Assembly (NCBI RefSeq): GCF_013315695.1
Contig: NZ_CP054353.1
Length of the DNA stretch: 64,000 bases
Source of the DNA: Escherichia coli
GTDB taxonomy: Bacteria; Pseudomonadota; Gammaproteobacteria; Enterobacterales; Enterobacteriaceae
Reading direction: 5' to 3' (one strand)
Below the pieces are notes generated by a model. The model did not search any database, was not told where the DNA came from, and saw only the letters and a program-made list of their open reading frames with translations. Shown piece after piece: positions 19,860-56,984 of the stretch (position 1 is the first letter of the stretch; each line of letters starts with the position of its first letter). Made by a program: the position numbers and the translations under genes.

Positions 19860-20168
19860 TCAAGCGGCAATAGCAAAATTCAGAATGCGTATAATCTCAT
19901 TGAAATGTCTCTGATATGTTTCATGATTCTCAGCGTCAACATCTTCAATAAATAATATCAGTTCAGTAATTAGCGCATTAGCATCGTCATAATTTATCCC
20001 TGCTAACTCTGGCGAAGTTTCAGTACCATAGTTAATCGTCAGGTTGTTCATAACTGTGAGGATATGGATAAAATATTTATGACAAACATTACATGTGGTT
20101 TTATTGCCCAGGGTATTATACAGCATATCAAGTAATGCCAGTATTCTACGATTTTGCACATCGTTCAT
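19860..20168 (-). CDS. hypothetical 102-aa protein, co-operonic with upstream lipoprotein gene (islet)
   Basis: ORF 11 bp downstream of lipoprotein ORF stop; AT-rich; not recognised. Confidence 0.5.
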   Translation of the reverse strand: MNDVQNRRILALLDMLYNTLGNKTTCNVCHKYFIHILTVMNNLTINYGTETSPELAGINYDDANALITELILFIEDVDAENHETYQRHFNEIIRILNFAIAA

Positions 20169-20178
20169 AAAAAGCCTC

Positions 20179-21144
20179 CTATAACATTATTCCGCTGGCA
20201 ATAAGTAATTTTGCCAGCCCCTCAGACGCCTTTAACCCACTAATGACCTGTGCGCGCAATATCTCATTTAACCTTTTTTGTTCAGCTGCCGTGCGTGTTT
20301 TATTAACATATAAATTATTCAGATAATCACCCTTATCTATAAAGGCATTTAAAGCCTCAATTGCGGGCATGGCAGGTGCCGATGCCTGTAGCCTGGTTTC
20401 ATTCACATTGATTACTGAACTTAGAAACTCCTTCCTGTTTTTCAGAGTGTTAAACTCTGTATTCTTAGCGTTTTTAGATGCCGTACTATAATAAAACATA
20501 TTATCATGCACATTCGCAAAGGTATAATTTTCAATCTTATTGCTTTTTGTATAAATATCATTACGCAAAACTGTCATGTTCCCTATAAGTCTTACCCAGT
20601 TTTCATCTACCGTTTTGCCTATTTTTCCAGAATTGACTTTTATTATATATAACTCATTGAAATAATTTACCAAATCTTTAACCGCTGCTGCAGATTGTGC
20701 TAAATCTTTGCTATGTGAAATACCAAGTAGTGTTTGTGCGTTATTTGCGTGATCCAGAGCCTGTTTAAGTAATGCCACTTGCTGACTTTCTGTCGTTGCC
20801 ATGTCCTCATTCAGAAGTTCTACATAAGCGCTCATGCTATTAATGACTTCCATTGAAGCCAGTAATTTTTCTTTCTCGAAAGTGACTAATTGTACTTTTT
20901 TTGTATTTGGCCCAGGGCGCTGGCATAATTTTCCGCCATTACCATCACCGCCTATATCTATGGTATAATCAGGTCGCAATGCACAATCCGGATTAGTCGC
21001 ATAAAAATTAACAAGGAAGTTTTCACGAGAAGCATAGTATTGTTTAAAGAAACTTGCATTCGCCGCAACCGCCTTGTTACCCGCAGTAATAACAGTTTCA
21101 GCTTGTTCATTCTTCAATGCTTCGGTTGCACAACCTGAAAGCAT
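20179..21144 (-). CDS. hypothetical lipoprotein, 5' end (signal-peptide region) split by IS1
   Basis: ORF begins MLSGCATE (lipobox Cys); remaining N-terminal codons MIRYSGIFLSLL lie across IS1 at 21921..21957 on the minus strand; low GC. Confidence 0.6.
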   Translation of the reverse strand: MLSGCATEALKNEQAETVITAGNKAVAANASFFKQYYASRENFLVNFYATNPDCALRPDYTIDIGGDGNGGKLCQRPGPNTKKVQLVTFEKEKLLASMEVINSMSAYVELLNEDMATTESQQVALLKQALDHANNAQTLLGISHSKDLAQSAAAVKDLVNYFNELYIIKVNSGKIGKTVDENWVRLIGNMTVLRNDIYTKSNKIENYTFANVHDNMFYYSTASKNAKNTEFNTLKNRKEFLSSVINVNETRLQASAPAMPAIEALNAFIDKGDYLNNLYVNKTRTAAEQKRLNEILRAQVISGLKASEGLAKLLIASGIML

Positions 21145-21207
21145 TAACAGCGGGTGATGCTGCCAACTTACTGATTTAGTGTATGATGGTGTTTTTGAGG
21201 TGCTCCA

Positions 21208-21483
21208 GTGGCTTCTGTTTCTATCAGCTGTCCCTCCTGTTCAGCTACTGACGGGGTGGTGCGTAACGGCAAAAGCACCGCCGGACATCAGCGCTATCTC
21301 TGCTCTCACTGCCGTAAAACATGGCAACTGCAGTTCACTTACACCGCTTCTCAACCCGGTACGCACCAGAAAATCATTGATATGGCCATGAATGGCGTTG
21401 GATGCCGGGCAACAGCCCGCATTATGGGCGTTGGCCTCAACACGATTTTACGTCACTTAAAAAACTCAGGCCGCAGTCGGTAA
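21208..21483 (+). CDS. insA: IS1 InsA
   Basis: 91-aa [46 protein letters not shown]... (zinc finger plus HTH). Confidence 0.95.
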
Positions 21484-21905
21484 CCTCGCGCATACAGCCG
21501 GGCAGTGACGTCATCGTCTGCGCGGAAATGGACGAACAGTGGGGCTATGTCGGGGCTAAATCGCGCCAGCGCTGGCTGTTTTACGCGTATGACAGGCTCC
21601 GGAAGACGGTTGTTGCGCACGTATTCGGTGAACGCACTATGGCGACGCTGGGGCGTCTTATGAGCCTGCTGTCACCCTTTGACGTGGTGATATGGATGAC
21701 GGATGGCTGGCCGCTGTATGAATCCCGCCTGAAGGGAAAGCTGCACGTAATCAGCAAGCGATATACGCAGCGAATTGAGCGGCATAACCTGAATCTGAGG
21801 CAGCACCTGGCACGGCTGGGACGGAAGTCGCTGTCGTTCTCAAAATCGGTGGAGCTGCATGACAAAGTCATCGGGCATTATCTGAACATAAAACACTATC
21901 AATAA
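21402..21905 (+). CDS. insB: IS1 InsB (expressed as InsAB' transposase by -1 frameshift)
   Basis: 167-aa ORF overlapping insA 3' end, typical IS1 organisation. Confidence 0.9.
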
Positions 21906-22126
21906 GTTGGAGTCATTACCTTAACAGCGATAGAAATATTCCACTATATCTAATCATAACCCACCTCTTGACGTTGAGTTTATCTCAGATAATTAAATAG
22001 TAATGTGGCTATTTCCTGGTAATATTCATAAGCAAGTATGAAATTAAATTAAAATACTGCGACTATTTATCATACTTCAAATGAAGAAAAGGCCCCGCAG
22101 GGCCTTTATTTTATACTTAACTTAAA

Positions 22127-23002
22127 TTAACCGTTATTATTACGTCCGCCAGAACGACGACCGCCGCTCACCTGACTGTGACGTTTCACCGCACGACGAA
22201 TCTGATTCGCCTTCATGCGACGACGGTCTTTTTCTACAGCGACTTTAGAGCTGGTTTCTGGCGGTAGCTCCACCAGTTCGCGCAGATAGTTAGTCTGGGC
22301 GAGGTCCAGCTCCGTCCAGCCACCGCGTGGCAGACCTTTTGGCAGTGGGATATCACCGTAACGAACACGGATCAGGCGGCTCACCTGCACACCAACCGCT
22401 TCCCAAAGACGACGAACTTCACGGTTACGGCCTTCGGTCAGAGTAACGTTGTACCACTGGTTGATCCCTTCGCCGCCGCTGAACTTGATGGTTTTAAAGG
22501 CTGCCGGACCATCTTCCAACTGCACGCCACGACTCAAATCACGCAGTTTCGCGTCGTCAACCTGACCAAATACACGCACGGCATATTCACGTTCAACTTC
22601 ACGGCTTGGGTGCATTAAACGGTTTGCCAGTTCACCATCGGTGGTGAACAGCAGCAGACCACAGGTATTAACGTCCAGGCGCCCCACGGCAATCCAGCGT
22701 GCGCCACGCAGTTTTGGCAGACGGTCAAACACCGTTGGACGTCCTTCCGGATCGTTACGGGTACACAACTCACCTTCCGGTTTGTAATAGGCCAGAACGC
22801 GACAAATTTGTTCAGCGGACTCACGTACCGAAATCAGGTGACCATCGATACGGATTTTCAATCCAGGGGTAACTTCAACGCGATCGCCGAGTTTAGCAAT
22901 TTTGCCATCAACACTCACACGACCGGCTTCAATAATAGATTCGATTTCACGGCGAGAGCCGTGGCCGGCACGCGCCAGCACTTTCTGTAGCTTTTCGCTC
23001 AT
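22127..23002 (-). CDS. rluB: 23S rRNA pseudouridine(2605) synthase
   Basis: 291-aa ORF with S4 domain and RsuA/RluB catalytic domain, Arg/Gly-rich C-terminal tail. Confidence 0.9.
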
Positions 23003-23212
23003 AGAGCTTCCTTTTGGTGTCGCCTTCCCAGGCGTCTGATATGCTTTTGTGCAACAGTGAGTCAGAATTTACATCTGACTCACTGATAGTAAAGTCTGTT
23101 TGAACTCTTCAGGCCTTAAGTAAACGACTCGACGTTTATCGGCCTGGCTTTGAGGCGCAACATACTACACTATCTTTATGGTTAAAGCTTGTTTCGATTA
23201 ACATCAGCTTAA

Positions 23213-25108
23213 TTACCAGCCACCACCGCCTCCGCCACCCGCCCCGCCGCCAGCACCACCACCGGAATAACTTCGCCCCAACAAACTGGTATTGGCCCCC
23301 AGGCTCAGGTGCATCTGTAATGAAAACAAAACGCCACTACGGGCAATTTCCGGGGCGTGAACAGCCGCTGTGAGTGATGGGGTGATACGTGCTGCCCATT
23401 CTTTTCCAAGGTTTGCCGAGACTGCCCAACCTAGCAACGCGTAATCCAGTTTCCGTGTTTCCCCTTTCCGCCGCCGCCCACTGTGTGTTGCTGCCTCTTT
23501 ACGCGCAAGATAGTTAACGATAGCTTCACCGTGGGCATAACGTTGCTGCCCAGTTTGGGTAAACTTTGGCAGAAAAATATACCCCATGCCAGTGAGATAA
23601 CCGGTCAGGAAAACAGCGCTAAAATAACCCGCTGGCATATACCAGTAAAAGAATACATCTCCGACATTGATATAGAGAGAATAAAAGGCCACGCCTGAAC
23701 AAATCAGCGGTAAAAACAAAGTGATGATTACACGATTAACGCAAGGCTTGTCATCATCGCGGACAAACAAAAGCTCAAGGGAACAAAATAAAAAAGGAAG
23801 AAGCCAGCAGATCATAATAAACATATCGCCAACCAGACTCATTCCTGCCCAACCTACGGGACTCAGGTTACCGTAGAGAATGACCGCCAATATCGCCATT
23901 CCGCCCCATTGCAAAAACGTATCTGGTCGATAAAACGAAGACTTTTTACGCGGCAGATAAAATTTCTGCATCCGTAAAAATGCCCTGCGTAAGACTCTGT
24001 TGCGTCTCCCCGTAAGAACGACCTTATCGCCTTTACGAAATAACGCTTCCAGTAATAACTGCTCTGCGGGCAGTAATACCGCATTATTTCTGGTCGCGCC
24101 TTCATTAACACAAATCAGGATTTGCTGGTTCTTGTCATACTGATCTTCCAGATGAATTTTTCCTTTAACAATCAGATTTACGATATCGGCACAAAAACCT
24201 TTATCGTCGTAAACCAGCTTCGCATCGAGACGTAACATGCCGGGTGTGTAATCTGGCGGAATGACATCGGTTTCAATCACATCTACCGGCGTAAATTGCG
24301 GCCTGCGCTTCCAGAGATATAACCATCCACACGCCAGGAAGAGACACGGAAACCAAATTAACAACGATGACGTAGAGGGTAAAAGAAGATGGCTGAAAAT
24401 ATTCGTCGTTTGTGGTGCCGGGGCATTACCAAGTAAAGCGTGAGGCCAGCGGTAGAGGACCGTGAAATCTTCACGATAAAACGGATCGCGGGATTCAATT
24501 CTTCCGTCCTCAAGGATGCGGCCATTTCGATATGTGTCGCCCTCTTCTCCAGTAAAGAGATCGATTTCGCTAAATGGATTACCCGCAATATCAGGCAACT
24601 TGAGTGAAAATAGGGTCTTATAAATTTCAAACGGCCAGTGGTTACCGGTCACGTTCCAGATTAGCAGATCAGAATCCCCTTCACGCAGGAAAGCATTTTT
24701 AACCTGATAATGAATTTGATAATGATAGTCGCCTTGAGGCAAGAAACGTTGTTTATCGCCCACGACAATACTCATTAACCCGATATGCCAGTCAAGATGC
24801 CAGGGTTCAGGAATACCATCACGGGTGACGCCAACAATATGATAGTTCAGCAGTGCAGCGTCCCCATCAGGCTGCATCCAGAGTCGTGGTAAATCACGAT
24901 AAAATCCGTGCTTAATCTGCTGATTTCGCGCCTGAAAATGAATATTTTCTTTGATGTCGAGCACCCCATCCGGTTGCAGAGTGGCTTCAACATCAAAGAG
25001 AGAGATCCCTTCTTCATAAGAAGGGATCTCCGTGTTTTTCGCATAACTCAACGAAGAGAAAAAAAGCCCAACTATCAACAGCAAAATGCAGCGAAACTTC
25101 CCTGCCAT
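23213..25108 (-). CDS. yciQ: DUF2207 membrane protein YciQ
   Basis: 631-aa ORF with signal peptide, TM segments and Gly-rich C-terminus; synteny. Confidence 0.85.
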   Translation of the reverse strand: MAGKFRCILLLIVGLFFSSLSYAKNTEIPSYEEGISLFDVEATLQPDGVLDIKENIHFQARNQQIKHGFYRDLPRLWMQPDGDAALLNYHIVGVTRDGIPEPWHLDWHIGLMSIVVGDKQRFLPQGDYHYQIHYQVKNAFLREGDSDLLIWNVTGNHWPFEIYKTLFSLKLPDIAGNPFSEIDLFTGEEGDTYRNGRILEDGRIESRDPFYREDFTVLYRWPHALLGNAPAPQTTNIFSHLLLPSTSSLLIWFPCLFLACGWLYLWKRRPQFTPVDVIETDVIPPDYTPGMLRLDAKLVYDDKGFCADIVNLIVKGKIHLEDQYDKNQQILICVNEGATRNNAVLLPAEQLLLEALFRKGDKVVLTGRRNRVLRRAFLRMQKFYLPRKKSSFYRPDTFLQWGGMAILAVILYGNLSPVGWAGMSLVGDMFIMICWLLPFLFCSLELLFVRDDDKPCVNRVIITLFLPLICSGVAFYSLYINVGDVFFYWYMPAGYFSAVFLTGYLTGMGYIFLPKFTQTGQQRYAHGEAIVNYLARKEAATHSGRRRKGETRKLDYALLGWAVSANLGKEWAARITPSLTAAVHAPEIARSGVLFSLQMHLSLGANTSLLGRSYSGGGAGGGAGGGGGGGW

Positions 25109-25135
25109 AGTCTTCCATCCGTGGAACGCAATTTG

Positions 25136-25756
25136 TTATAAGAAAGGCTTCACATCACCTACGCCTTCACGCACCACGACCGGCGTATCATCGGTAAGAT
25201 CAATAACCGTTGTCGGTTTCTGCCCGAGATAGCCACCGTGAATAATCAAATCCACCTGTTTTTCCAGACGGTCTTTAATTTCTTCCGGATCGGATTCGGT
25301 AAATTCACTGCCTGGCAGCATTAGCGAAGTGGAAAGCATCGGTTCGCCCAATGCTTCAAGCAGCGCCTGCGCAATCGGGTTAGACGGCACACGCATACCG
25401 ATGGTTTTGCGTTTTTCCTGCAACAGACGGCGTGGCACTTCCTTCGTCCCCTTCAGGATGAAGGTATAGTTGCCCGGCGTGTTGTTTTTCATTAAACGAA
25501 ACGCAACGTTATCGACAAATGAATAGGTCGAGAGTTCAGAAAGATCGCGACACATCAGGGTAAAGTTGTGACCGTCCGGCAGCTGGCGAATACGACAAAT
25601 ACGCTCCATGGCGTTTTTATCTTCAATTTTACAGCCGAGCGCATAGCCGGAATCAGTTGGATAAACAATCACCCCGCCTTTACGCACGATCTCCACCGCC
25701 TGGTTGATCAGACGTTGCTGCGGGTTATCAGGATGAATATAAAAAAACTGGCTCAT
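25136..25756 (-). CDS. yciO: YrdC/Sua5-like dsRNA-binding protein YciO
   Basis: Start at MSQFFYIHPDNPQQRLINQAVEIVRKGG... within ORF 25136..25792. Confidence 0.9.
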   Translation of the reverse strand: MSQFFYIHPDNPQQRLINQAVEIVRKGGVIVYPTDSGYALGCKIEDKNAMERICRIRQLPDGHNFTLMCRDLSELSTYSFVDNVAFRLMKNNTPGNYTFILKGTKEVPRRLLQEKRKTIGMRVPSNPIAQALLEALGEPMLSTSLMLPGSEFTESDPEEIKDRLEKQVDLIIHGGYLGQKPTTVIDLTDDTPVVVREGVGDVKPFL

Positions 25757-26634
25757 AATTCCCTCTCTGTGGTGTTCTGCGGCTGTTCCCATAGCTGCCA
25801 GACGCCTTCAACGCCTGCGGGCAGCCAGAGTTTACGACCCAGTTCGATCCACGGGCATGGCTGATGAAAATCAGATCCTTGTGATGCCCATAAATGATGC
25901 TGACGCGCAAGTGTCGCCAGCTGGGTGCGTTCATTGGGCGATTGCTGGCACTGCGCGACTTCCATCGCGTCGCCGTGGTGTTCAGCAAAATGCGCAACCA
26001 ATCTTTTCAGCCATTTAGCACTAAGATTGTACCGCCCAGGATGAGCTAGCACCGCCTTACCGCCAGAATGATGAATGACATCAATAGCTTGTTCTATTGT
26101 ACACCACTGTGGCGGAACGTATCCGGTTTTCCCGCGCGCCAGATATTTTTTAAAGACATCCGCCATTGAACTGGCTTTGCCGCACTCCACAAGGAAACGA
26201 GCAAAATGACCGCGCGTCACCGCACCGCCCTGCGCCAGTCGTTGCGCGCCTTCCAGTGCCCCAGGTATTTGCGCTTTTTCAAGTCTTTCGGCAATCAGCT
26301 GCGCCCGCTGATTGCGCCGTTCTGTCTGCTGCGCGAGGAACTCACACATTAGCGGATGAGTAATATCAATATTCAGCCCGACAATATGAATTTCATGATT
26401 TTCCCAGACCGTGGAAATTTCCACGCCGGGAATAAGATTCAGCGCCAGTCCCGAACGTGAAATTTCCTCTCTTGCTGGTGCAATTGCAGCTGTGGTGTCA
26501 TGGTCGGTGATCGCCAGGGTGCCGACGCGCATCTCGACTGCACGGCGCACCAATGCTTCTGGCGTCAGGCAGCCATCGGAAGCTGTGGTATGGCTGTGCA
26601 GGTCGTAAATCACTGCGTAATTCGTGTCGCTCAA
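25753..26634 (-). CDS. yciV: PHP-domain 5'-3' exoribonuclease (RNase AM; TrpH/YciV)
   Basis: 293-aa ORF with PHP motifs (HSHTTASDG ... DHDT). Confidence 0.9.
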   Translation of the reverse strand: MSDTNYAVIYDLHSHTTASDGCLTPEALVRRAVEMRVGTLAITDHDTTAAIAPAREEISRSGLALNLIPGVEISTVWENHEIHIVGLNIDITHPLMCEFLAQQTERRNQRAQLIAERLEKAQIPGALEGAQRLAQGGAVTRGHFARFLVECGKASSMADVFKKYLARGKTGYVPPQWCTIEQAIDVIHHSGGKAVLAHPGRYNLSAKWLKRLVAHFAEHHGDAMEVAQCQQSPNERTQLATLARQHHLWASQGSDFHQPCPWIELGRKLWLPAGVEGVWQLWEQPQNTTEREL

Positions 26635-26709
26635 GGCGCACTCCCGTTCTGGATAATGTTTTTTGCGCCGACATCATAACGGTTCTGGCAAATATTCTGA
26701 AATGAGCTG

Positions 26710-26744
26710 TTGACAATTAATCATCGAACTAGTTAACTAGTACG
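26710..26744 (+). promoter_or_regulatory. trp promoter (-35 ttgaca, -10 ttaact) with TrpR operator palindrome cgaactagttaactagtacg
   Basis: Canonical trp promoter/operator sequence read directly upstream of trpL. Confidence 0.9.
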
Positions 26745-26771
26745 CAAGTTCACGTAAAAAGGGTATCGACA

Positions 26772-26816
26772 ATGAAAGCAATTTTCGTACTGAAAGGTTG
26801 GTGGCGCACTTCCTGA
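26772..26816 (+). CDS. trpL: trp operon leader peptide
   Basis: 14-codon [17 protein letters not shown] with tandem Trp codons. Confidence 0.95.
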
Positions 26817-26857
26817 AACGGGCAGTGTATTCACCATGCGTAAAGCAATCAGATACC

Positions 26858-26887
26858 CAGCCCGCCTAATTAGCGGGCTTTTTTTTG
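26858..26887 (+). terminator. trp attenuator (3:4 terminator hairpin)
   Basis: cagcccgcctaattagcgggc followed by T8. Confidence 0.9.
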
Positions 26888-26907
26888 AACAAAATTAGAG
26901 AATAACA

Positions 26908-28470
26908 ATGCAAACACAAAAACCGACTCTCGAACTGCTAACTTGCAAAGGCGCTTATCGCGACAACCCGACTGCGCTTTTTCACCAGTTGTGTGGGGAT
27001 CGTCCGGCAACGCTGCTGCTGGAATCCGCAGATATCGACAGCAAAGATGATTTAAAAAGTCTATTGCTAGTGGACAGTGCGCTGCGCATTACAGCATTAG
27101 GTGACACTGTCACTATTCAGGCACTTTCCGGCAATGGCGAAGCCCTGTTGGCATTACTGGATAACGCCCTGCCTGCGGGTGTGGAAAATGAACAATCACC
27201 AAACTGCCGCGTGCTGCGCTTCCCTCCTGTCAGTCCATTGCTGGATGAAGACGCCCGCTTATGCTCCCTTTCGGTTTTTGACGCTTTCCGCTTATTGCAG
27301 AATCTGTTGAATGTACCGAAGGAAGAACGGGAAGCGATGTTCTTTGGTGGCCTGTTCTCTTACGACCTGGTCGCAGGATTTGAAGATTTACCGCAACTGG
27401 CAGCGGAAAATAACTGCCCTGATTTCTGTTTTTATCTCGCTGAAACGCTGATGGTGATTGACCATCAGAAAAAAAGCACCCGTATTCAGGCCAGCCTGTT
27501 TGCTCCCAATGAAAAAGAAAAACAACGTCTCACTGCTCGCCTGAACGAACTTCGCCAGCAACTGACCGAAACCGCGCCACCGCTGCCGGTGGTTTCCGTG
27601 CCGCATATGCGTTGTGAATGTAATCAGAGCGATGAAGAGTTCGGTGGCGTGGTGCGTTCGTTGCAAAAAGCGATTCGCGCCGGAGAAATTTTCCAGGTGG
27701 TGCCATCTCGCCGTTTCTCTCTACCCTGCCCGTCACCGCTGGCGGCTTATTACGTGCTGAAAAAGAGTAATCCCAGCCCGTACATGTTTTTTATGCAGGA
27801 TAATGATTTCACCCTGTTTGGCGCGTCGCCGGAAAGTTCGCTCAAGTATGACGCCACCAGCCGCCAGATTGAGATCTACCCGATTGCCGGAACACGCCCA
27901 CGCGGTCGTCGTGCCGATGGTTCACTGGACAGAGACCTCGACAGCCGCATCGAACTCGAAATGCGTACCGACCATAAAGAGCTTTCTGAACATCTGATGC
28001 TGGTGGATCTCGCCCGTAATGACCTGGCTCGCATTTGCACACCCGGCAGCCGCTACGTTGCCGATCTCACCAAAGTTGACCGTTACTCTTACGTGATGCA
28101 CCTGGTCTCCCGCGTTGTTGGTGAGCTGCGCCACGATCTCGACGCCCTGCACGCTTACCGCGCCTGTATGAATATGGGGACGTTAAGCGGTGCGCCGAAA
28201 GTACGCGCTATGCAGTTAATTGCCGAAGCAGAAGGTCGTCGACGCGGCAGCTACGGCGGCGCGGTAGGTTATTTTACCGCGCATGGCGATCTCGACACCT
28301 GCATTGTGATCCGCTCGGCGCTGGTGGAAAACGGTATCGCCACCGTGCAAGCCGGTGCTGGCGTAGTCCTTGATTCTGTTCCGCAGTCGGAAGCCGACGA
28401 AACCCGTAATAAAGCCCGCGCTGTACTGCGCGCTATTGCCACCGCGCATCATGCACAGGAGACCTTCTGA
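26908..28470 (+). CDS. trpE: anthranilate synthase component I
   Basis: 520-aa ORF, chorismate-binding family; operon context. Confidence 0.95.
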
Positions 28471-30065
28471 TGGCTGACATTCTGCTGCTCGATAATATCG
28501 ATTCTTTTACTTACAACCTGGCAGATCAGTTGCGCAGCAATGGTCATAACGTGGTGATTTACCGCAACCATATTCCGGCGCAGACCTTAATTGAACGCCT
28601 GGCGACGATGAGCAATCCGGTGCTGATGCTCTCTCCTGGCCCCGGTGTGCCGAGCGAAGCCGGTTGTATGCCGGAACTCCTCACCCGCCTGCGCGGCAAG
28701 CTGCCAATTATTGGCATTTGCCTCGGTCATCAGGCGATTGTCGAAGCTTACGGGGGCTATGTCGGTCAGGCGGGCGAAATTCTTCACGGTAAAGCGTCGA
28801 GCATTGAACATGACGGTCAGGCGATGTTTGCCGGATTAACAAACCCGCTGCCAGTGGCGCGTTATCACTCGCTGGTTGGCAGTAATATTCCGGCAGGTTT
28901 AACCATCAACGCCCATTTTAATGGCATGGTGATGGCGGTGCGCCATGATGCGGATCGCGTTTGTGGATTCCAGTTCCATCCGGAATCCATTCTTACTACC
29001 CAGGGCGCTCGCCTGCTGGAACAAACGCTGGCCTGGGCGCAGCAGAAACTAGAGCCAACCAACACGCTGCAACCGATTCTGGAAAAACTGTATCAGGCGC
29101 AGACCCTTAGTCAGCAGGAAAGCCACCAGCTATTTTCAGCGGTGGTGCGTGGCGAACTGAAACCGGAACAACTGGCGGCGGCGCTGGTGAGCATGAAAAT
29201 TCGCGGCGAGCACCCGAATGAAATCGCCGGGGCAGCAACCGCGCTACTGGAAAACGCCGCGCCGTTCCCGCGCCCGGATTATCTGTTTGCCGATATCGTC
29301 GGTACTGGCGGTGACGGCAGCAACAGTATCAATATTTCTACCGCCAGTGCGTTTGTCGCCGCGGCCTGCGGGCTGAAAGTGGCGAAACACGGCAACCGTA
29401 GCGTCTCCAGTAAATCCGGCTCGTCGGATCTGCTGGCGGCGTTCGGTATTAATCTTGATATGAACGCCGATAAATCGCGCCAGGCGCTGGATGAGTTAGG
29501 CGTCTGTTTCCTCTTTGCGCCGAAATATCACACCGGATTCCGCCATGCAATGCCGGTTCGCCAGCAACTGAAAACCCGCACCCTGTTCAATGTTCTGGGG
29601 CCATTAATTAACCCGGCGCATCCTCCGCTGGCGTTAATTGGTGTCTACAGCCCGGAGCTGGTGCTGCCGATTGCCGAAACCTTGCGCGTGCTGGGGTATC
29701 AACGCGCGGCGGTGGTGCACAGCGGCGGGATGGATGAAGTTTCATTACACGCGCCGACAATCGTTGCCGAACTGCATGACGGCGAAATTAAAAGCTATCA
29801 GCTCACCGCAGAAGACTTTGGCCTGACACCCTACCACCAGGAGCAATTGGCAGGCGGAACACCGGAAGAAAACCGTGACATTTTAACACGCTTGTTACAA
29901 GGTAAAGGCGACGCCGCCCATGAAGCAGCCGTCGCGGCGAATGTCGCCATGTTAATGCGCCTGCATGGCCATGAAGATCTGCAAGCCAATGCGCAAACCG
30001 TTCTTGAGGTACTGCGCAGTGGTTCCGCTTACGACAGAGTCACCGCACTGGCGGCACGAGGGTAA
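28470..30065 (+). CDS. trpD: anthranilate synthase component II / anthranilate phosphoribosyltransferase
   Basis: 531-aa bifunctional ORF (GATase plus PRT domain), overlapping trpE stop. Confidence 0.95.
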
Positions 30066-31427
30066 ATGATGCAAACCGTTTTAGCGAAAATCGTCGCAGA
30101 CAAGGCGATTTGGGTAGAAACCCGCAAAGAGCAGCAACCGCTGGCCAGTTTTCAGAATGAGGTTCAGCCGAGCACGCGACATTTTTATGATGCACTTCAG
30201 GGCGCACGCACGGCGTTTATTCTGGAGTGTAAAAAAGCGTCGCCGTCAAAAGGCGTGATCCGTGATGATTTCGATCCGGCACGCATTGCAACCGTCTACA
30301 GAAATTACGCTTCGGCAATTTCGGTGCTGACTGACGAGAAATATTTTCAGGGGAGCTTTGATTTCCTCCCCATTGTCAGCCAAATCGCCCCACAGCCGAT
30401 TTTATGTAAAGACTTTATTATCGACCCTTACCAGATCTATCTGGCGCGCTATTACCAGGCTGATGCCTGCTTATTAATGCTTTCAGTACTGGATGACGAA
30501 CAATATCGCCAGCTTGCCGCCGTCGCCCACAGTCTGGAGATGGGTGTGCTGACCGAAGTCAGTAATGAAGAGGAACTGGAGCGCGCCATTGCATTGGGGG
30601 CAAAGGTCGTTGGCATCAACAACCGCGATCTGCGCGATTTGTCGATTGATCTCAACCGTACCCGCGAGCTTGCACCGAAACTGGGGCACAACGTGACGGT
30701 AATCAGCGAATCCGGCATCAATACTTACGCTCAGGTGCGCGAGTTAAGCCACTTCGCTAACGGTTTTCTGATTGGTTCGGCGTTGATGGCCCATGACGAT
30801 TTGAACGCCGCCGTGCGCCGGGTGTTGCTGGGTGAGAATAAAGTGTGTGGCCTGACGCGTGGGCAAGATGCTAAAGCAGCTTATGACGCGGGCGCGATTT
30901 ACGGTGGGTTGATTTTTGTTGCGACATCACCGCGTTGCGTCAACGTTGAACAGGCGCAGGAAGTGATGGCTGCGGCACCGTTGCAGTATGTTGGCGTGTT
31001 CCGCAATCACGATATTGCCGATGTGGTGGACAAAGCTAAGGTGTTATCGCTGGCGGCAGTGCAACTGCATGGTAAAGAAGATCAGCTGTATATCGACACT
31101 CTGCGTGAGGCTCTGCCAGCACACGTCGCCATCTGGAAGGCTTTAAGTGTCGGTGAAACTCTTCCCGCGCGCGATTTTCAGCACATCGATAAATATGTAT
31201 TCGACAACGGTCAGGGCGGGAGCGGACAACGTTTCGACTGGTCACTATTAAATGGTCAATCGCTTGGCAACGTTCTGCTGGCGGGGGGCTTAGGCGCAGA
31301 TAACTGCGTGGAAGCGGCACAAACCGGCTGCGCCGGACTTGATTTTAATTCTGCTGTAGAGTCGCAACCGGGCATCAAAGACGCACGTCTTTTGGCCTCG
31401 GTTTTCCAGACGCTGCGCGCATATTAA
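30066..31427 (+). CDS. trpC: indole-3-glycerol phosphate synthase / phosphoribosylanthranilate isomerase
   Basis: 453-aa bifunctional ORF. Confidence 0.95.
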
Positions 31428-31438
31428 GGAAAGGAACA

Positions 31439-32632
31439 ATGACAACATTACTTAACCCGTATTTTGGTGAGTTTGGCGGCATGTACGTGCCACAAATCCT
31501 GATGCCTGCTCTGCGCCAGCTGGAAGAAGCTTTTGTCAGTGCGCAAAAAGATCCTGAATTTCAGGCTCAGTTCAACGACCTGCTGAAAAACTATGCCGGG
31601 CGTCCAACCGCGCTGACCAAATGCCAGAACATTACAGCCGGGACGAACACCACGCTGTATCTGAAGCGCGAAGATTTGCTGCACGGCGGCGCGCATAAAA
31701 CTAACCAGGTGCTGGGACAGGCGTTGCTGGCGAAGCGGATGGGTAAAACGGAAATCATCGCCGAAACCGGAGCCGGTCAGCATGGCGTGGCGTCGGCCCT
31801 TGCCAGCGCCCTGCTCGGCCTGAAATGCCGTATTTATATGGGTGCCAAAGACGTTGAACGCCAGTCGCCAAACGTTTTTCGTATGCGCTTAATGGGTGCG
31901 GAAGTGATCCCGGTACATAGCGGTTCCGCGACGCTGAAAGATGCCTGTAACGAGGCGCTGCGCGACTGGTCCGGCAGTTATGAAACCGCGCACTATATGC
32001 TGGGCACCGCAGCTGGCCCACATCCTTATCCGACCATTGTCCGTGAGTTTCAGCGAATGATTGGCGAAGAAACCAAAGCACAGATTCTGGAAAGAGAAGG
32101 TCGCCTGCCGGATGCGGTTATCGCCTGTGTTGGCGGCGGTTCGAATGCCATCGGCATGTTTGCAGATTTCATCAACGAAACCGACGTCGGCCTGATTGGT
32201 GTGGAGCCTGGCGGCCACGGTATCGAAACTGGCGAGCACGGCGCACCGTTAAAACATGGTCGCGTGGGCATCTATTTCGGTATGAAAGCGCCGATGATGC
32301 AAACCGAAGACGGGCAAATTGAAGAGTCTTACTCCATTTCTGCCGGGCTGGATTTCCCGTCCGTCGGCCCGCAACATGCGTATCTCAACAGCACTGGACG
32401 CGCTGATTACGTGTCTATTACCGACGATGAAGCCCTGGAAGCCTTTAAAACGCTTTGCCTGCATGAAGGGATCATCCCGGCGCTGGAATCCTCCCACGCC
32501 CTGGCCCATGCGCTGAAAATGATGCGCGAAAATCCGGAAAAAGAGCAGCTATTGGTGGTTAACCTTTCCGGTCGCGGCGATAAAGACATCTTCACCGTTC
32601 ACGATATTTTGAAAGCACGAGGGGAAATCTGA
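31439..32632 (+). CDS. trpB: tryptophan synthase beta chain
   Basis: 397-aa PLP enzyme (HGGAHKTNQ lysine motif). Confidence 0.95.
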
Positions 32633-33438
32633 TGGAACGCTACGAATCTCTGTTTGCCCGTTTGAAGGAGCGCAAAGAAGGCGCATTCGTTCCTTTCGTC
32701 ACCCTCGGTGATCCGGGCATTGAGCAGTCGCTGAAAATTATCGATGCGCTAATTGAAGCCGGTGCTGACGCGCTGGAGTTAGGCATCCCCTTCTCCGACC
32801 CACTGGCAGATGGCCCGACGATTCAAAACGCCACACTGCGTGCCTTTGCGGCAGGTGTGACCCCGGCGCAGTGCTTTGAGATGCTGGCACTCATTCGCCA
32901 GAAACACCCGACCATTCCCATTGGCCTGCTGATGTATGCCAACCTGGTGTTTAACAAAGGCATTGATGAGTTTTATGCCCAGTGCGAAAAAGTCGGCGTC
33001 GATTCGGTGCTGGTTGCCGATGTGCCCGTGGAAGAGTCCGCGCCCTTCCGCCAGGCCGCGTTGCGTCATAATGTCGCACCTATCTTTATCTGCCCGCCAA
33101 ATGCCGATGACGACCTGCTGCGCCAGATAGCCTCTTACGGTCGTGGTTACACCTATTTATTGTCGCGTGCGGGCGTGACCGGCGCAGAAAACCGCGCCGC
33201 GTTACCCCTCAATCATCTGGTCACGAAGCTGAAAGAATACAATGCTGCGCCTCCATTGCAGGGATTTGGTATTTCCGCCCCGGATCAGGTAAAAGCAGCG
33301 ATTGATGCAGGAGCTGCGGGCGCGATTTCTGGTTCGGCCATCGTTAAAATCATCGAGCAACATATTAATGAGCCAGAGAAAATGCTGGCGGCACTGAAAG
33401 CTTTTGTACAACCGATGAAAGCGGCGACGCGCAGTTAA
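32632..33438 (+). CDS. trpA: tryptophan synthase alpha chain
   Basis: 268-aa ORF overlapping trpB stop. Confidence 0.95.
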
Positions 33439-33442
33439 TCCC

Positions 33443-33470
33443 ACAGCCGCCAGTTCCGCTGGCGGCATTT
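33443..33470 (+). terminator. trp operon terminator
   Basis: cagccgccagttccgctggcggc hairpin followed by T-run. Confidence 0.8.
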
Positions 33471-33818
33471 TTACTTTCTTTAACGAAGCCGGAAAAATCC
33501 TAAATTCATTTATTATTTATCTTTTTACCGTTTCGCTTACCCCTGTCGAACGTCAACTTACGTCTTTTTTCCGCCCAACAGTAATATAATCAAACAAATT
33601 AATCCCGCAACATAACACCAGTAAAGTCAATAATTTTCTCTAAGTCACTTATTCCTCAGGCAATTGTTAATATATCCAGAATGTTCCTCAAAATATATTT
33701 TTCCTCTTTTTTCTCGTTACGCTTAATTTGACTAATTCTCATTTGCGACTAATTTTAATGAGTGTCGACACACAACACTCATATTAATCAAACAATGCAG
33801 CGCAACGGGAGAAATAAC

Positions 33819-33998
33819 ATGGCCGAACATCGTGGTGGTTCAGGAAATTTCGCCGAAGACCGTGAGAAGGCATCCGACGCAGGCCGTAAAGGCGGTCAGC
33901 ATAGCGGCGGTAATTTTAAAAATGATCCGCAACGCGCATCTGAAGCAGGTAAAAAATGCGGTCAACAAAGCGGTGGTAATAAATCAGGAAAATCCTGA
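33819..33998 (+). CDS. yciG: KGG-repeat stress protein YciG
   Basis: 59-aa ORF MAEHRGGSGNFAEDREKASDAGRKGGQHSGGNFKNDPQRASEAGKKCGQQSGGNKSGKS. Confidence 0.85.
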   Translation: MAEHRGGSGNFAEDREKASDAGRKGGQHSGGNFKNDPQRASEAGKKCGQQSGGNKSGKS

Positions 33999-34083
33999 TT
34001 CACCGTTCATTATTAATATCAGCTGATAAAGATAATTGCATCTGCGGGCCGTATGGCTCGCAGTGATTTCACTGGAGAAAAAT

Positions 34084-34584
34084 ATGAATATGAAGACCAT
34101 TGAAGATGTATTTATTCACCTGCTTTCAGACACCTACAGTGCAGAAAAACAATTAACACGTGCACTGGCAAAACTCGCTAGAGCAACATCAAACGAAAAA
34201 TTAAGTCAGGCTTTTCATGCGCACCTCGAGGAAACACATGGACAGATTGAACGTATTGATCAAGTTGTGGAATCAGAATCGAATCTGAAAATTAAGCGCA
34301 TGAAATGTGTGGCAATGGAAGGTCTTATTGAAGAAGCTAATGAGGTCATCGAAAGTACCGAGAAAAACGAAGTGCGTGATGCCGCACTGATTGCCGCAGC
34401 ACAGAAAGTCGAGCATTATGAGATTGCCAGTTACGGGACATTAGCGACGCTGGCTGAACAATTAGGTTACCGTAAAGCAGCTAAGCTTCTGAAAGAAACT
34501 CTTGAAGAAGAAAAGGCCACCGACATCAAACTAACTGATCTGGCCCTTAATAACGTAAATAAGAAAGCCGAAAATAAAGCCTGA
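34084..34584 (+). CDS. yciF: DUF892/ferritin-like protein YciF
   Basis: 166-aa ORF MNMKTIEDVFIHLLSDTYSAEKQLTRALAKLARATS... Confidence 0.9.
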   Translation: MNMKTIEDVFIHLLSDTYSAEKQLTRALAKLARATSNEKLSQAFHAHLEETHGQIERIDQVVESESNLKIKRMKCVAMEGLIEEANEVIESTEKNEVRDAALIAAAQKVEHYEIASYGTLATLAEQLGYRKAAKLLKETLEEEKATDIKLTDLALNNVNKKAENKA

Positions 34585-34629
34585 AATATGAACTTTAACT
34601 TTTAGTCATTTTATAAAGAGGACATTTTC

Positions 34630-34921
34630 ATGAATCGTATTGAACATTATCATGACTGGTTACGTGACGCCCACGCAATGGAAAAGCAAGCCGAATCTAT
34701 GCTTTAATCCATGGCCAGCCGTATAGATAATTATCCTGAACTACGCGCTCGTATTGAACAACATCTTAGTGAAACCAAAAACCGATTGTTCAACTGGAAA
34801 CTATTCTTGATCGTAATGACATTTCACGTTCAGTCATTAAAGATTCCATGAGTAAAATGGCTGCGCTTGGGCAGTCAATCGGTGGTATATTTCCTTCTGA
34901 TGAAATAGTCAAAGGCTCTAT
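34630..34921 (+). pseudogene. yciE: yciE pseudogene: in-frame TAA at codon 26, 1-bp deletion frameshift, 3' end removed by IS1
   Basis: MNRIEHYHDWLRDAHAMEKQAESML* then YciE-like sequence continues in the same frame (SMASRIDNYPELRARIEQHLSETKN), then shifts frame (…SVIKDSMSKMAALGQSIGGIFPSDEIVKGS) until the IS1 end. Confidence 0.8.
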
Positions 34922-34976
34922 GGTGATGCTGCCAACTTACTGATTTAGTGTATGATGGTGTTTTTGAGGTGCTCCA

Positions 34977-35252
34977 GTGGCTTCTGTTTCTATCAGCTGT
35001 CCCTCCTGTTCAGCTACTGACGGGGTGGTGCGTAACGGCAAAAGCACCGCCGGACATCAGCGCTATCTCTGCTCTCACTGCCGTAAAACATGGCAACTGC
35101 AGTTCACTTACACCGCTTCTCAACCCGGTACGCACCAGAAAATCATTGATATGGCCATGAATGGCGTTGGATGCCGGGCAACAGCCCGCATTATGGGCGT
35201 TGGCCTCAACACGATTTTACGTCACTTAAAAAACTCAGGCCGCAGTCGGTAA
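34977..35252 (+). CDS. insA: IS1 InsA
   Basis: Identical translation to copy 1. Confidence 0.95.
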
Positions 35253-35674
35253 CCTCGCGCATACAGCCGGGCAGTGACGTCATCGTCTGCGCGGAAATGG
35301 ACGAACAGTGGGGCTATGTCGGGGCTAAATCGCGCCAGCGCTGGCTGTTTTACGCGTATGACAGGCTCCGGAAGACGGTTGTTGCGCACGTATTCGGTGA
35401 ACGCACTATGGCGACGCTGGGGCGTCTTATGAGCCTGCTGTCACCCTTTGACGTGGTGATATGGATGACGGATGGCTGGCCGCTGTATGAATCCCGCCTG
35501 AAGGGAAAGCTGCACGTAATCAGCAAGCGATATACGCAGCGAATTGAGCGGCATAACCTGAATCTGAGGCAGCACCTGGCACGGCTGGGACGGAAGTCGC
35601 TGTCGTTCTCAAAATCGGTGGAGCTGCATGACAAAGTCATCGGGCATTATCTGAACATAAAACACTATCAATAA
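35171..35674 (+). CDS. insB: IS1 InsB
   Basis: Identical translation to copy 1. Confidence 0.9.
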
Positions 35675-35888
35675 GTTGGAGTCATTACCGTGATAAACAT
35701 CCGGTTTCTTCCACCATCGCACCGGACAGGCGACTATGAGGGGACAACGCCGCGCTCCGTTAACGCGGTAAACCCCGGTGTGTATCGTTTTTGATTATCC
35801 CCGCACACTCGCGCAGAGGAGTCTCCCTGTCGGGCTGCGGTCTCTGTTAATGAGGGAATACAGCGACGATACGGCGCATCAACAAAAC

Positions 35889-36356
35889 TTATTTCAGGCA
35901 CTGAGTACGGATATATTCCTGCGCCCCTTCCAGTTGCTTCTGCATCGTCATCAGCCGCTCTCTGAGGGTGAAATAATCCCGTGTAACGGTGTCTGCCAGT
36001 TGGGGGCCGGTTGCATTATCCACGCGGGCGGTGCCGGTGGCTTCACGCACGGGACCTGGACAGGTGGCGTTGATACGCAGGCGCTTACGACCAGCGGCAA
36101 CGTCAGCGCGAAGAGTTTCATTTTCAGCTTTCGCATCAGCTAACTCCTTCGTGTATTTTGCATCGAGCGCAGCAACATCACGCTGACGCATCTGCATGTC
36201 AGTAATTGCCGCGTTCGCCAGCTTCAGTTCTCTGACATTTTTGTCGCGCTGGGCTTTGTAGGTAATGGCGTTATCACGGTAATGATTCAGCCCCAGACTA
36301 AGCGCACCACAGGCCACCAGCAGGGCAATGATGACCACGCACAGTACGCGGTTCAT
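35889..36356 (-). CDS. i-spanin Rz
   Basis: 155-aa ORF …[70 protein letters not shown]… closely resembles lambda Rz. Confidence 0.9.
35951..36136 (-). CDS. o-spanin Rz1 lipoprotein (embedded in Rz, +1 frame)
   Basis: 61-aa [25 protein letters not shown]…[32 protein letters not shown]; lipobox and Pro-rich, lambda Rz1-like. Confidence 0.85.
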
Positions 36357-36654: not shown

Positions 36655-37188
36655 TTATCTGTCGATTCCCCAGCACGCCAGCGCGCTCTCCTGGTCACGA
36701 CGGGATACCTGACCATAACAGTTGTTTGAGCGGATACGGCAGTCTCTGCCACCGTCCTTAATCCACCAGCGAATCGCCTCACACGCTCCCCTGCGATCAC
36801 CTGCATTAATTCGTTTATAAAACGTCGACGGGAAACACTTACCGGGACCAATGTTGTACGGACAGAATGACGCGATCCCCGCTTTCTGGGGTTCACTCAA
36901 TGGCACTCTGATGTTTTTCTCCACCCATGCCAGCGCCTCATCACGCTCAATGGCGTTAACCCGGTCGCATTTTTCCTTCGACAACTTCATGCCCGGAACG
37001 ACAGGTTTGCCATCCACCAGGATGGCACCGCGGCAGATGGTCCAGATACCCGCACCATCACGGTATGCCGTGGTGTGGTTACCTTCCTTTTCATCCAGAA
37101 ACTGGTCGAGAATGTCAGGCGCAGGCGCACCAGCGGCAATCAGCGCCAGAACGGCAGCCGACAGGCCGTATCTGATTTTTGCGTTCAT
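36655..37188 (-). CDS. phage endolysin (GH24 lysozyme with N-terminal signal-anchor-release-like segment), RrrD-like
   Basis: 177-aa ORF MNAKIRYGLSAAVLALIAAGAPAPDILDQFLDEKEGNHTTAYRDGAGIWTICRG… closely resembles cryptic-prophage lysozyme RrrD. Confidence 0.9.
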   Translation of the reverse strand: MNAKIRYGLSAAVLALIAAGAPAPDILDQFLDEKEGNHTTAYRDGAGIWTICRGAILVDGKPVVPGMKLSKEKCDRVNAIERDEALAWVEKNIRVPLSEPQKAGIASFCPYNIGPGKCFPSTFYKRINAGDRRGACEAIRWWIKDGGRDCRIRSNNCYGQVSRRDQESALACWGIDR

Positions 37189-40100: not shown

Positions 40101-40330
40101 GAATCCTCCCGGGCGGGATAATGTTGTGAGTCAGATAAGGAGCAGGCTGAAGTCCGGAAGTTACAGGACAATGGCAGAAGGGAGACTACAGCCCGCAATT
40201 CGAAAAAGACCGCGCAGTTGCGCAGAGTGATTACTATGGGGTATTATTCGCCAGCTGAAATATTACTTCACGTTTTATTGTTTATTCCTTGCCGCCCGCG
40301 TCTCCCAGCGCGGGCTTTTTTTGTCCATAA

Positions 40331-40568
40331 GAAAGCCCCTCCGGAGAGGGGCTAAAGCCGCGTATCTGTATCATCATGCACATGGTGCCGGGTGCCTCCC
40401 GGTGAGTTCAGCCCGGTGCCACTAAACCCGCGTCATTCTCGTTTTGATAATCAGAGATTATACCGTCACCAGTCGCCCCTCCGCTCAGGGGGATTCACCA
40501 TGCGAAATTTTTTTAACAAATGCCCAGTCTGACAGGCAACTGTCAACTTACTGAATTGTGAGCAACAT
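40331..40568. repeat. hairpin-rich noncoding repeat unit, copy A
   Basis: Shares blocks aaagcccctccggagaggggct, catggtgccgggtgcctcccggtga, cccctccgc.cagggggattcaccatgc, ttttaacaaa, ctgaattgtgag with copy B. Confidence 0.7.
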
Positions 40569-40815
40569 AGCATTTAACGGGGAACCTGTTTTCTGCAGTA
40601 AAAAGGCCCACCGGAGCGGATGGGCCTGGAAGGATAGCGGTCATGTGATGCCGGTTTCCCGGTAACTCAGCACCGGTATCTGAGTCAACGTTTTCTCTAC
40701 TGGGTCATTTCCGATACGCCCTGCCTGCTGACAGGCTTTCATCACATCTGAAAATATAGCACCCTGACTGATACTGTAGTACCTAAGGTTCCAGAAACTG
40801 TGATGTATCCGGCAC

Positions 40816-41036
40816 AGAAAAGCCCCTCCGGAGAGGGGCTGGAGAGTGGCGCTATGTGCCATTGCATGGTGCCGGGTGCCTCCCGGTGAATTCAGTACCA
40901 GCACCTGAATCCGCGATTATCCCATATACCTACTCGCTGATTGCCCCTCCGCACAGGGGGATTCACCATGCCAGTTTCTTTTAACAAACTCCCCGCAAAC
41001 CAGACAACAGTCAACCGCCTGAATTGTGAGACATTT
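40816..41036. repeat. hairpin-rich noncoding repeat unit, copy B
   Basis: Degenerate direct repeat of copy A (~485 bp period); a third partial copy of the ccgg-hairpin block lies at ~40690..40740. Confidence 0.7.
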
Positions 41037-41074
41037 AAAAAAAGCCCGCAAAAGCGAGCCAGGGAAAATAAGTG

Positions 41075-41151
41075 TGGCGCGTTGTACTGGATTCGAACCA
41101 GTGACCGATTGCTTAGAAGGCAATTGCTCTGTCCGGCTGAGCTAACAACGC
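41075..41151 (-). tRNA. tRNA-Arg (anticodon UCU)
   Basis: Manual fold: acceptor GCGTTGT/ACAACGC, D-arm GCTC..GAGC, anticodon stem ATTGC/GCAAT with loop CTTCTAA, T-arm ACTGG TTCGAAT CCAGT, CCA end. Confidence 0.9.
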
Positions 41152-41164
41152 AGGATACAGATAA

Positions 41165-41241
41165 TGGACCGCCTTCGGGGACCCGAACTCCGCGCAACCA
41201 GCTTCGAAAGCTGGCGCTCTTTCCTGATGAGCTAATGGCGG
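41165..41241 (-). tRNA. tRNA-Arg-like (anticodon UCG), possibly degenerate
   Basis: Perfect anticodon stem CCAGC/GCTGG with loop TTTCGAA, but one mismatch each in acceptor and T stems and T-loop TTCGGGT lacks the conserved A58. Confidence 0.5.
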
Positions 41242-41248
41242 TATGTGA

Positions 41249-41324
41249 TGGTGGCCCTTGCTGGATTTGAACCAGCGACCTGGCGATTATGAGTCGCTCG
41301 CTCTCACCACTGAGCTAAAGGGCC
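41249..41324 (-). tRNA. tRNA-Ile2/Met type (anticodon CAU), ileX/ileZ-like
   Basis: GGCCCTTTAGCTCAGTGGTGAGAGCGAGCGACTCATAATCGCCAGGTCGCTGGTTCAAATCCAGCAAGGGCCACCA; near-identical to remembered E. coli tRNA-Ile2 (k2CAU). Confidence 0.85.
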
Positions 41325-56950: not shown

Positions 56951-56984
56951 TGACCAGTTTTGCAGAGGGGTTTTGCAGAGAAAA

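Follow-up and report, generated by a model that had tools for sequence, protein, structure and literature searches.

In Tn9-type transposons a direct pair of IS1 copies flanks cat, and in E. coli K-12 an argF segment is said to be flanked by IS1 as well, as reportedly described by Hu and Deonier in 1981 and by York and Stodolsky in 1981; in K-12 this argF is additional and peculiar to the strain, and its segment is believed to have been imported as a unit. The classical deletions caused by IS1 are those of the gal region, reportedly described by Reif and Saedler in 1975. IS-adjacent deletions that grow stepwise and leave no target duplications have been shown experimentally in E. coli, and stepwise deletions adjacent to IS150 are known from the Lenski long-term lines (PMC11708052). 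For IS1 itself, an architecture in which InsAB' results from a -1 frameshift at A6C has been described, and replicative transposition is reported as its main mode (PMC12428005). In the window analysed here, a stretch of 64 kb of E. coli DNA, a direct pair of IS1 copies encloses the trp operon. It is very probable that the native trp region came to be bracketed by chance, through two independent and ordinary IS1 events, one of the two copies having reached its present state by insertion followed by a deletion of about 26 kb. The locus is a natural, cleanly resolved example of textbook IS1 behaviour and implies no new mechanism or class of element.

Pairwise comparison revealed two complete IS1 copies of 768 bp each, copy A at 21153-21920 and copy B at 34922-35689, both located on the plus strand and hence in direct orientation, with 0 mismatches between them (100% identity) and with the identity ending exactly at the IS boundaries. 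The proposal of the first-pass annotation, i.e. a direct pair of identical IS1 copies in the same orientation around the trp operon, was borne out, the copies being neither divergent nor inverted. They are 13,769 bp apart from start to start, with 13,001 bp in between, so that the unit measures 14,537 bp overall; the pair is the sole long repeat within the window, and no further IS1 fragments were found in these 64 kb. In copy A, insA spans 21208-21483, the A6C frameshift motif is at 21457 and insB' extends to 21905, and copy B has the same sequence. Both copies retain intact ends, in which 18 of 23 positions agree between IRL and IRR, and intact transposase frames: insA encodes 91 aa, TTAAAAAACTC is found at IS position 305, the fused InsAB' frame is open for 232 aa, and a promoter-like site is located in IRL. 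Length, ends, frames and similarity are those expected of IS1 (about 768 bp, imperfect inverted repeats of about 23 bp, insA and insB' joined at A6C, and near-identity to the reference) and agree with its description in PMC12428005. Compared with IS1A of K-12 (MG1655), the length, the inverted repeats, insA, the A6C -1 site and the 232-aa InsAB' are the same, and 767 of 768 positions are identical, the lone difference being G444 for T, which gives R130 for S130 in InsAB'. The 9-bp target duplication typical of IS1 is present at copy A and absent at copy B.

The region between the copies was delineated by ORFs together with the RefSeq annotation of MSB1_4I, which was transferred to the window with an offset of +13,699. 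It contains 1) rluB (22127-23002), yciQ (23213-25108), yciO (25136-25756) and rnm/trpH (25753-26634), all on the minus strand, 2) the trp operon (26772-33466) on the plus strand, consisting of trpL (26772-26816), trpE (26908-28470), trpD (28470-30065), trpCF (30066-31427), trpB (31439-32632) and trpA (32632-33438) and a terminator-like hairpin after trpA (33446-33466), and 3) yciG (33819-33998) and yciF (34084-34584), also on the plus strand. The gene content that had been assigned to this region from the ORFs agreed with the MSB1_4I annotation. Along the 13,001 bp enclosed by the IS1 pair, the window differed by 1 SNP from MSB1_4I and by 1 SNP from AF3, and the neighbours of the trp block were those found in other E. 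coli, native synteny being seen in all relatives examined.

Copy A is flanked on both sides by TTAACAGCG, a 9-bp duplication at 21144-21152 and 21921-21929 (strand not applicable). Site A is empty in IAI39 and AF3, each having one TTAACAGCG, which in AF3 appears as a 9-bp overlap of two alignments, and removal of copy A in silico restores the empty site as it occurs there. The description of copy A as a simple insertion with a target duplication was therefore confirmed. Its target is an AT-rich islet of two genes in the interval between cobO and rluB. The first gene of the islet is an ORF of 102 aa on the minus strand (19860-20168), annotated as hypothetical protein WP_001000712.1 in MS 21-1, IAI39 and AF3, and no NCBIfam or PADLOC match was found for it. 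The other gene encodes a predicted lipoprotein of 333 aa and has been split by copy A inside the signal peptide: its 3' part, from about codon 11-13, lies at 20179-21152 (minus strand), whereas the detached 5' end of about 10 first codons, together with the upstream region, lies at 21930-22126 (minus strand), where a bidirectional terminator-like hairpin (22088-22107) is located downstream of rluB. When the flanks were rejoined without IS1 and one copy of the duplication, a 333-aa ORF beginning with MIRYSGIFLSLLMLSGC was regained; in AF3 the gene is uninterrupted (WP_001571343.1). The lipoprotein had no Pfam, NCBIfam or PADLOC match. It was also noticed that the islet is a recurrent target of IS1. 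MS 21-1, which at 100% query coverage had initially seemed to share copy A, was rejected by exact mapping: its own IS1 is situated 139 bp from site A, is flanked by the duplication AACTTAACA and has 3 base differences, and it is therefore an independent insertion that gives no ancestral state.

The flanks of copy B differ from each other, the left one being AGGCTCTAT and the right one GTGATAAAC, and copy B is thus without a target duplication. The junctions read AGGCTCTAT/GGTGATGC on the left and CATTACC/GTGATAAAC on the right. On the left, copy B cuts a 5' stub of yciE (34630-34921, plus strand) at 34921. Codon 26 of the stub is a TAA and its reading frame is shifted as well, and the yciE of MS 21-1, which is free of IS1, is likewise annotated as containing a frameshift and an internal stop; yciE had become a pseudogene before the arrival of IS1. 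On the right, the identity with IS1 ends at 35689, and a remnant of a lambdoid prophage starts 199 bp past Rz, at what is the end point of a deletion. The left junction is common to AF3 and MSB1_4I. The near-clonal AF3 has an identical IS1 and an identical yciE junction, together with a complete prophage and another right flank (CATTACC/AAATTTTCT). Compared with AR_0013, AF3 lacks 704 bp beside the yciE IS1, and the right flank of copy B in the window is collinear with the AF3 prophage 25,328 bp further in; measured against MS 21-1, the gap in the window is 24,954 bp. The deletion thus begins exactly at the IS terminus, with the IS kept and no duplication. The first-pass annotation had stated that copy B has no matching 9-bp duplication and adjoins both a truncated prophage and a truncated yciE, all of which is found in the window, and its suggestion that copy B marks an IS1-associated deletion gained support from the junctions in AF3, AR_0013 and MS 21-1.

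A history in two steps, as characterises an adjacent deletion, is reflected in AF3, where IS1 sits at the left junction with the prophage still there. The region of copy B accordingly shows a nested series of deletions anchored on one IS1 end and amounting to about 26 kb in total, of which AF3 would be a natural intermediate, unless it lies on a side branch and not in the direct line. Intramolecular replicative transposition of IS1, i.e. the classical adjacent deletion, is the likeliest mechanism and also explains the lack of a duplication at copy B. IS1 would first have entered the pseudogene yciE, beside the tail end of the lambdoid prophage integrated at ompW. This first step is reconstructed rather than observed, since a yciE carrying a simple IS1 insertion, with the duplication on both sides, was found in no genome. 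Deletions would then have run outward from the IRR end of the fixed yciE IS1, taking 704 bp (the state kept in AF3) and subsequently 25,328 bp more (the state in the window), so that IS1 would have been kept, the duplication lost and yciE' fused to the point beyond Rz. As in the adjacent deletions known for IS1 at gal and for IS150 in the Lenski lines, the IS remains exactly at one end point without a duplication, the junction on one side stays constant and the opposite end varies, and a small deletion was extended later. Unlike the deletions selected in the laboratory, these occurred in a natural clinical lineage, and the DNA lost was the late half of a prophage with an att site. In AF3, which has the yciE-IS1 junction, site A is empty, and the insertion of copy B in yciE is therefore older than copy A. 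In the later step, a second IS1 of identical sequence entered the signal-peptide codons of the lipoprotein gene by simple insertion with a 9-bp duplication, and this hop bracketed a core operon incidentally.

The same sequence outcome at junction B, namely a lone IS1 between collinear flanks that share no duplication, would be expected from RecA-dependent recombination between the yciE IS1 and an IS1 of the same orientation downstream of Rz, with loss of about 25 kb and one IS1. Such inter-IS recombination is a frequent cause of missing target duplications (PMC11708052), and a second copy nearby is plausible in an IS1-rich clone: the window comes from a clone of the lineage to which IAI39 and CE10 also belong, a clone in which IS1 has become numerous, and at least 40 places matching IS1 were counted in each of MSB1_4I and AF3, compared with 6-20 in CE10, IAI39 and MS 21-1. 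However, an IS1 at the prophage site was present in no complete genome, the 704-bp deletion of AF3 would need yet another IS1 merely 704 bp away, and nested end points that start from a single fixed IS terminus are the classical mark of an adjacent deletion, so that recombination between two copies is a possible but rather unlikely origin of the junction, and the deletion was probably transposase-mediated rather than recombinational. The sole apparent candidate was E18, in which the right junction of copy B seemed to be present; the match proved to be an artefact of joined pieces, and the IS1 of E18 is located beyond the holin gene, elsewhere in the prophage. Identical IS copies commonly cause misjoins and are a hazard for short-read assembly, and junction B or the whole arrangement might in principle have resulted from collapse of the identical 768-bp repeats. 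Since MSB1_4I, a complete genome assembled independently, has the four junctions of the window as well, and AF3 has the yciE-IS1 junction, such an assembly artefact is hardly credible. MSB1_4I is a different isolate, as it has an extra ISKpn26, a SNP in copy B and a few other SNPs relative to the window. With adjacent deletion as the preferred reading, AF3, MSB1_4I and the window make up three near-clonal genomes that record an IS1 end advancing into a prophage and immobilising it.

The 14.5-kb unit as a whole might alternatively be a genuine, active compound transposon or an amplifiable cassette carrying the trp operon. As in Tn9-type elements, two complete direct copies surround a passenger, and the outer IRL and IRR as well as the InsAB' frame are intact. 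IS1 is also abundant on plasmids (about 15,500 matching places on E. coli plasmid records), so that a circle, once excised, would find homologous sites for docking. Unlike in Tn9, the passenger is a 13-kb stretch of core genes still in their native chromosomal place, the outer flanks (TTAACAGCG left, GTGATAAAC right) form no duplication around the whole unit, the copies were acquired at different times (AF3 has copy B and not copy A), and the unit was found in no second context or replicon, all relatives examined having the conserved chromosomal synteny. Native synteny and differing outer flanks indicate that the trp block was not acquired by transposition. Chimeric junctions were searched for among 5,426 complete E. 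coli genomes, with a match defined as at least 80% coverage, and neither the deletion junction (left flank of A, IS1, right flank of B) nor the amplification or circle junction (left flank of B, IS1, right flank of A) was found in any of them (0/5,426 each), although the clone of the window accounts for only 2-3 of these genomes and the absence says little on rare events within populations. A search for the trp operon on plasmids returned 14 records, all with less than 99% identity, three of which were chromosome-sized (about 4.8-4.9 Mb). Of the smaller records, the one examined, that of KE48 (385 kb), was considered as a case of mobilised trp and rejected, for it has the full chromosomal synteny from cysB to oppC and no IS1 flanks; no plasmid carrying an IS1-flanked trp unit was found among the records. 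In addition, the transposition frequency of IS1-flanked transposons is said to drop steeply with length, reportedly after Chandler, Clerget and Galas in 1982, which also argues against an active transposon. Taken with the differing arrival times of the copies, these data make an active element exceedingly unlikely, and the pair, judged from its sequence, seems to be composite-transposon-like in structure only.

The claim that the unit can delete, amplify or mobilise its content accordingly stands in part: it is reasonable from the structure, but no product of deletion, of amplification or circle formation, or of transfer to a plasmid was found. RecA-dependent deletion or tandem duplication and future mobility would represent a potential of the locus rather than its observed history, and the strain may be predisposed to spontaneous Trp auxotrophy or to duplication of the trp region. 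As in the K-12 argF segment, a locus for amino-acid biosynthesis lies between direct IS1 copies and is prone to IS1-IS1 recombination, whereas the only trp operon of the window was bracketed in situ. It is very unlikely that the pair already serves as a working copy-number switch or a nascent "Tn-trp", acting by amplification on starvation, loss in rich niches or docking of a circle. Were it so, unequal exchange between the IS1 copies would amplify the 13.8-kb unit in sub-populations of this clinical clone under tryptophan starvation (e.g. by depletion through host IDO), and in rich niches the unit would be lost, giving Trp auxotrophs; another route might be the docking of an excised IS1-trp circle in an IS1-bearing conjugative plasmid, moving a core operon towards mobility.

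The prophage remnant left beside copy B (35690-56950, minus strand with strands mixed, about 21.3 kb) is integrated at ompW (56985-57623, minus strand), which is intact and is the attachment locus. From the copy B side it carries Rz (35889-36356), lysozyme (36655-37188), a SASA-family esterase (38247-40100), three tRNAs (41075-41324), an exonuclease (53058-55529), xis (55594-55842) and int (55820-56950), and a holin, Q and replication genes are present as well. The remnant has no terminase, no head, tail or tail-fibre genes and no att copy on the yciE side; the ompW' att fragment occurs once only in the window (56983-57103), the second copy being missing. Having lost one att, cos/terminase and all virion genes, the remnant is predicted to be unable to excise by Int/Xis or to form particles, and it should not be scored as inducible. 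The same modules (int-xis, early, replication, Q and lysis) are kept in the cryptic lambdoid prophages of K-12, in which the structural genes and one att site have similarly been lost. Unlike in those prophages, the inactivation here can be pinned to one IS1 end, and the sister isolate AF3 keeps the prophage at full length.

The two 768-bp IS1 copies, copy A at 21153-21920 and copy B at 34922-35689, lie on the same strand around the trp operon, and this observation of the first-pass annotation was accurate. Pairwise comparison revealed every base to be identical (0 differing bases), with the match ending exactly at the IS termini, which bore out the earlier description of identical, co-oriented copies; no further IS1 fragments were found in the 64-kb window. 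The copies are 13,769 bp apart from start to start, with 13,001 bp between them, and the whole unit spans 14,537 bp. Each has an IRL and an IRR matching at 18 of 23 positions, a 91-aa insA, an A6C slippery motif and an open 232-aa InsAB' frame, in agreement with the architecture of active IS1 (PMC12428005), and differs by one base from IS1A of K-12 MG1655, giving R130 for S130 in InsAB'.

Copy A is bordered on the left and right by TTAACAGCG, a 9-bp duplication. Removal of the IS1 and one repeat from the window yielded the uninterrupted IAI39 sequence base for base, and in the near-clonal isolate AF3 the flanks of the copy A target overlapped by exactly the 9 bp of TTAACAGCG. These comparisons identify copy A as a simple insertion with target duplication, as had been proposed. 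It interrupts a gene for a predicted lipoprotein of 333 aa (MIRYSGIFLSLLMLSGC...), cutting the signal-peptide region some 10-12 codons from the start; this protein had no Pfam match, and neither it nor its 102-aa neighbour had a match in NCBIfam or PADLOC. The two genes form an islet of 37-38% GC between cobO and rluB (19860-22080), which is missing from K-12-like arrangements and is a hot spot for IS1, struck independently at least five times, in different strains and at different positions: 1) copy A, in the window and MSB1_4I, 2) an insertion in MS 21-1 with the duplication AACTTAACA, 139 bp from the copy A site, 3) an inverted insertion in the lipoprotein gene of AR_0013 (L006, 18902-19669) with the duplication GATTGTGCT, and 4) insertions in WP4-S17-ESBL-03 and NR1442, each at a position other than that of copy A. 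Since the AR_0013 element is a divergent isoform, 91.3% identical to the window IS1 and inverted in the same lipoprotein gene, the islet is targeted by more than one IS1 lineage.

Copy B has AGGCTCTAT to its left and GTGATAAAC to its right, and flank comparison detected no target duplication; as had been noted from the sequence, it adjoins a truncated yciE and a truncated prophage. The left flank lies within yciE (34630-34921), which in this clone carries a TAA at codon 26 and a frameshift, defects older than the arrival of IS1 and found in MS 21-1 without the element. To its right, copy B borders on a lambdoid prophage integrated at ompW, at a point 199 bp downstream of that prophage's Rz ('lysis protein') gene. 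MS 21-1 retains the prophage in full, and by comparison the window is short of 24,954 bp at copy B. AF3 (NZ_OZ547117), differing from the window by one SNP across the 13,001 bp between the copies, shares both the IS1 and the yciE junction exactly, yet to the right it reads AAATTTTCT... and runs on into the complete prophage; relative to AR_0013, it has lost only 704 bp, comprising the yciE 3' end, the ompW' att fragment and a bit of the prophage end. The right flank in the window is collinear with the AF3 prophage, 25,328 bp further along. Deletions from a single, stationary IS1 end thus reach two end points, one nested within the other, and total about 26 kb. In the larger one, 28 genes annotated in AF3 are gone: a VapA/VapB-family gene, a YkgJ-family gene, two hypothetical genes, a tail-fibre gene, lom, J, the rest of the tail and head genes, both terminase subunits and two small ORFs. 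The remnant (35690-56950, about 21.3 kb from Rz to int) retains lysis, Q, replication, exo, xis and int, and no second att copy was found in the window; it is capable of neither packaging nor site-specific excision. Also within the remnant, at 38247-41324, are a SASA-family carbohydrate esterase of 617 aa and three clustered tRNA genes, identified by ARAGORN as Arg-tct, Arg-tcg and one with a CAT anticodon (Met by ARAGORN, Ile by RefSeq); the tRNA cluster is located downstream of Q and upstream of the esterase and lysis genes.

The first-pass annotation had offered adjacent deletion or inter-IS recombination for this junction. The genome comparisons with AF3, AR_0013 and MS 21-1 established the deletion, and both mechanisms fit the sequence. 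An IS1-mediated adjacent deletion, in which intramolecular replicative transposition would proceed from the IRR end of copy B, is the most likely origin, given a retained IS, no duplication, collinear flanks and nested end points. IS1 transposition is reported to be mainly replicative (PMC12428005), and in evolving E. coli lines IS-adjacent deletions have been seen to grow in steps (PMC11708052). The same final sequence would result if copy B had undergone homologous recombination with another IS1 in the prophage that has since been lost; however, no genome with such an intermediate was found among the complete genomes searched, and the 704-bp deletion in AF3 would require another IS1 just 704 bp away, for which reasons we regard adjacent deletion as roughly twice as probable. 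Because copy B points the same way as yciGF and the + strand showed no terminator-like site from yciG to the IRL of copy B (33819-34956), read-through from this stress operon into insA/insAB' could raise its transposase and make copy B unusually active; context effects on IS1 transposase expression have been reported (PMC12428005). In the unrelated strain F829 (L012), an IS1 lies in yciF, so that the yciGFE region was struck there too.

As AF3 has the yciE-IS1 junction with an empty copy A site, and MSB1_4I and the window have both the junction and copy A, the yciE insertion is the earlier and copy A the younger event, which fits the intact duplication of copy A and its identity to copy B. The closest complete genome is that of MSB1_4I; differences in an ISKpn26 between cobO and the 102-aa ORF (L002, 5109-6303; absent from the window at about 20003-20007), a private SNP (G625A) in its copy B and an 11-bp length difference in the att region between int and ompW (56950-56985) show that the window derives from a sister isolate rather than the same genome. 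The clone is rich in IS1, with at least 40 matching places each in MSB1_4I and AF3, 18-20 in MS 21-1 and 6-12 in CE10 and IAI39.

The pair resembles Tn9 in its direct IS1 copies, competent outer ends and intact transposase frame. Nevertheless, because the outer flanks of the unit are not alike, the rluB-to-yciF block has the same synteny in every other E. coli examined and the two copies were acquired at different times, the pair is Tn9-like in structure but not a compound transposon in history. The earlier designation as a composite-transposon-like unit thus stands for the structure (direct copies, intact ends, open InsAB') and not for the history, and most of the first interpretation is correct, now stated more exactly. 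The arrangement arose incidentally as IS1 expanded in one clone and is a fresh instance of the known phenomena of IS1 insertion, adjacent deletion, prophage grounding and compound-transposon-like configuration.

The unit had also been credited with the ability to delete, amplify and mobilise the block. Paired direct IS1 copies have the potential for RecA-mediated deletion, tandem amplification and rare transposition, and the structure here would give the same potential; however, neither the predicted deletion product (left flank A-IS1-right flank B) nor the duplication or circle junction (left flank B-IS1-right flank A) occurred in any of 5,426 complete genomes, and no plasmid copy with IS1 flanks was found. 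Among 72,556 plasmid records, only 14 contained the trp operon, all below 99% identity. Three of the 14 were chromosome-sized, several 4.8-4.9 Mb 'plasmid' records evidently being chromosomes. The one smaller record examined, KE48 'plasmid unnamed1' (L009, NZ_CP141085.1, 385,579 bp; PLSDB), has cysB-topA-...-trp-...-oppC in full chromosomal synteny without IS1; rather than a trp plasmid, it is probably part of a chromosome or a wrongly assigned replicon. Chandler et al. are said to have found in 1982 that longer IS1-flanked transposons transpose at lower frequency. None of rluB, yciQ, yciO, rnm, trpLEDCBA and yciGF is known to be essential in K-12, so deletion of the block should be viable yet leave the strain a Trp auxotroph.
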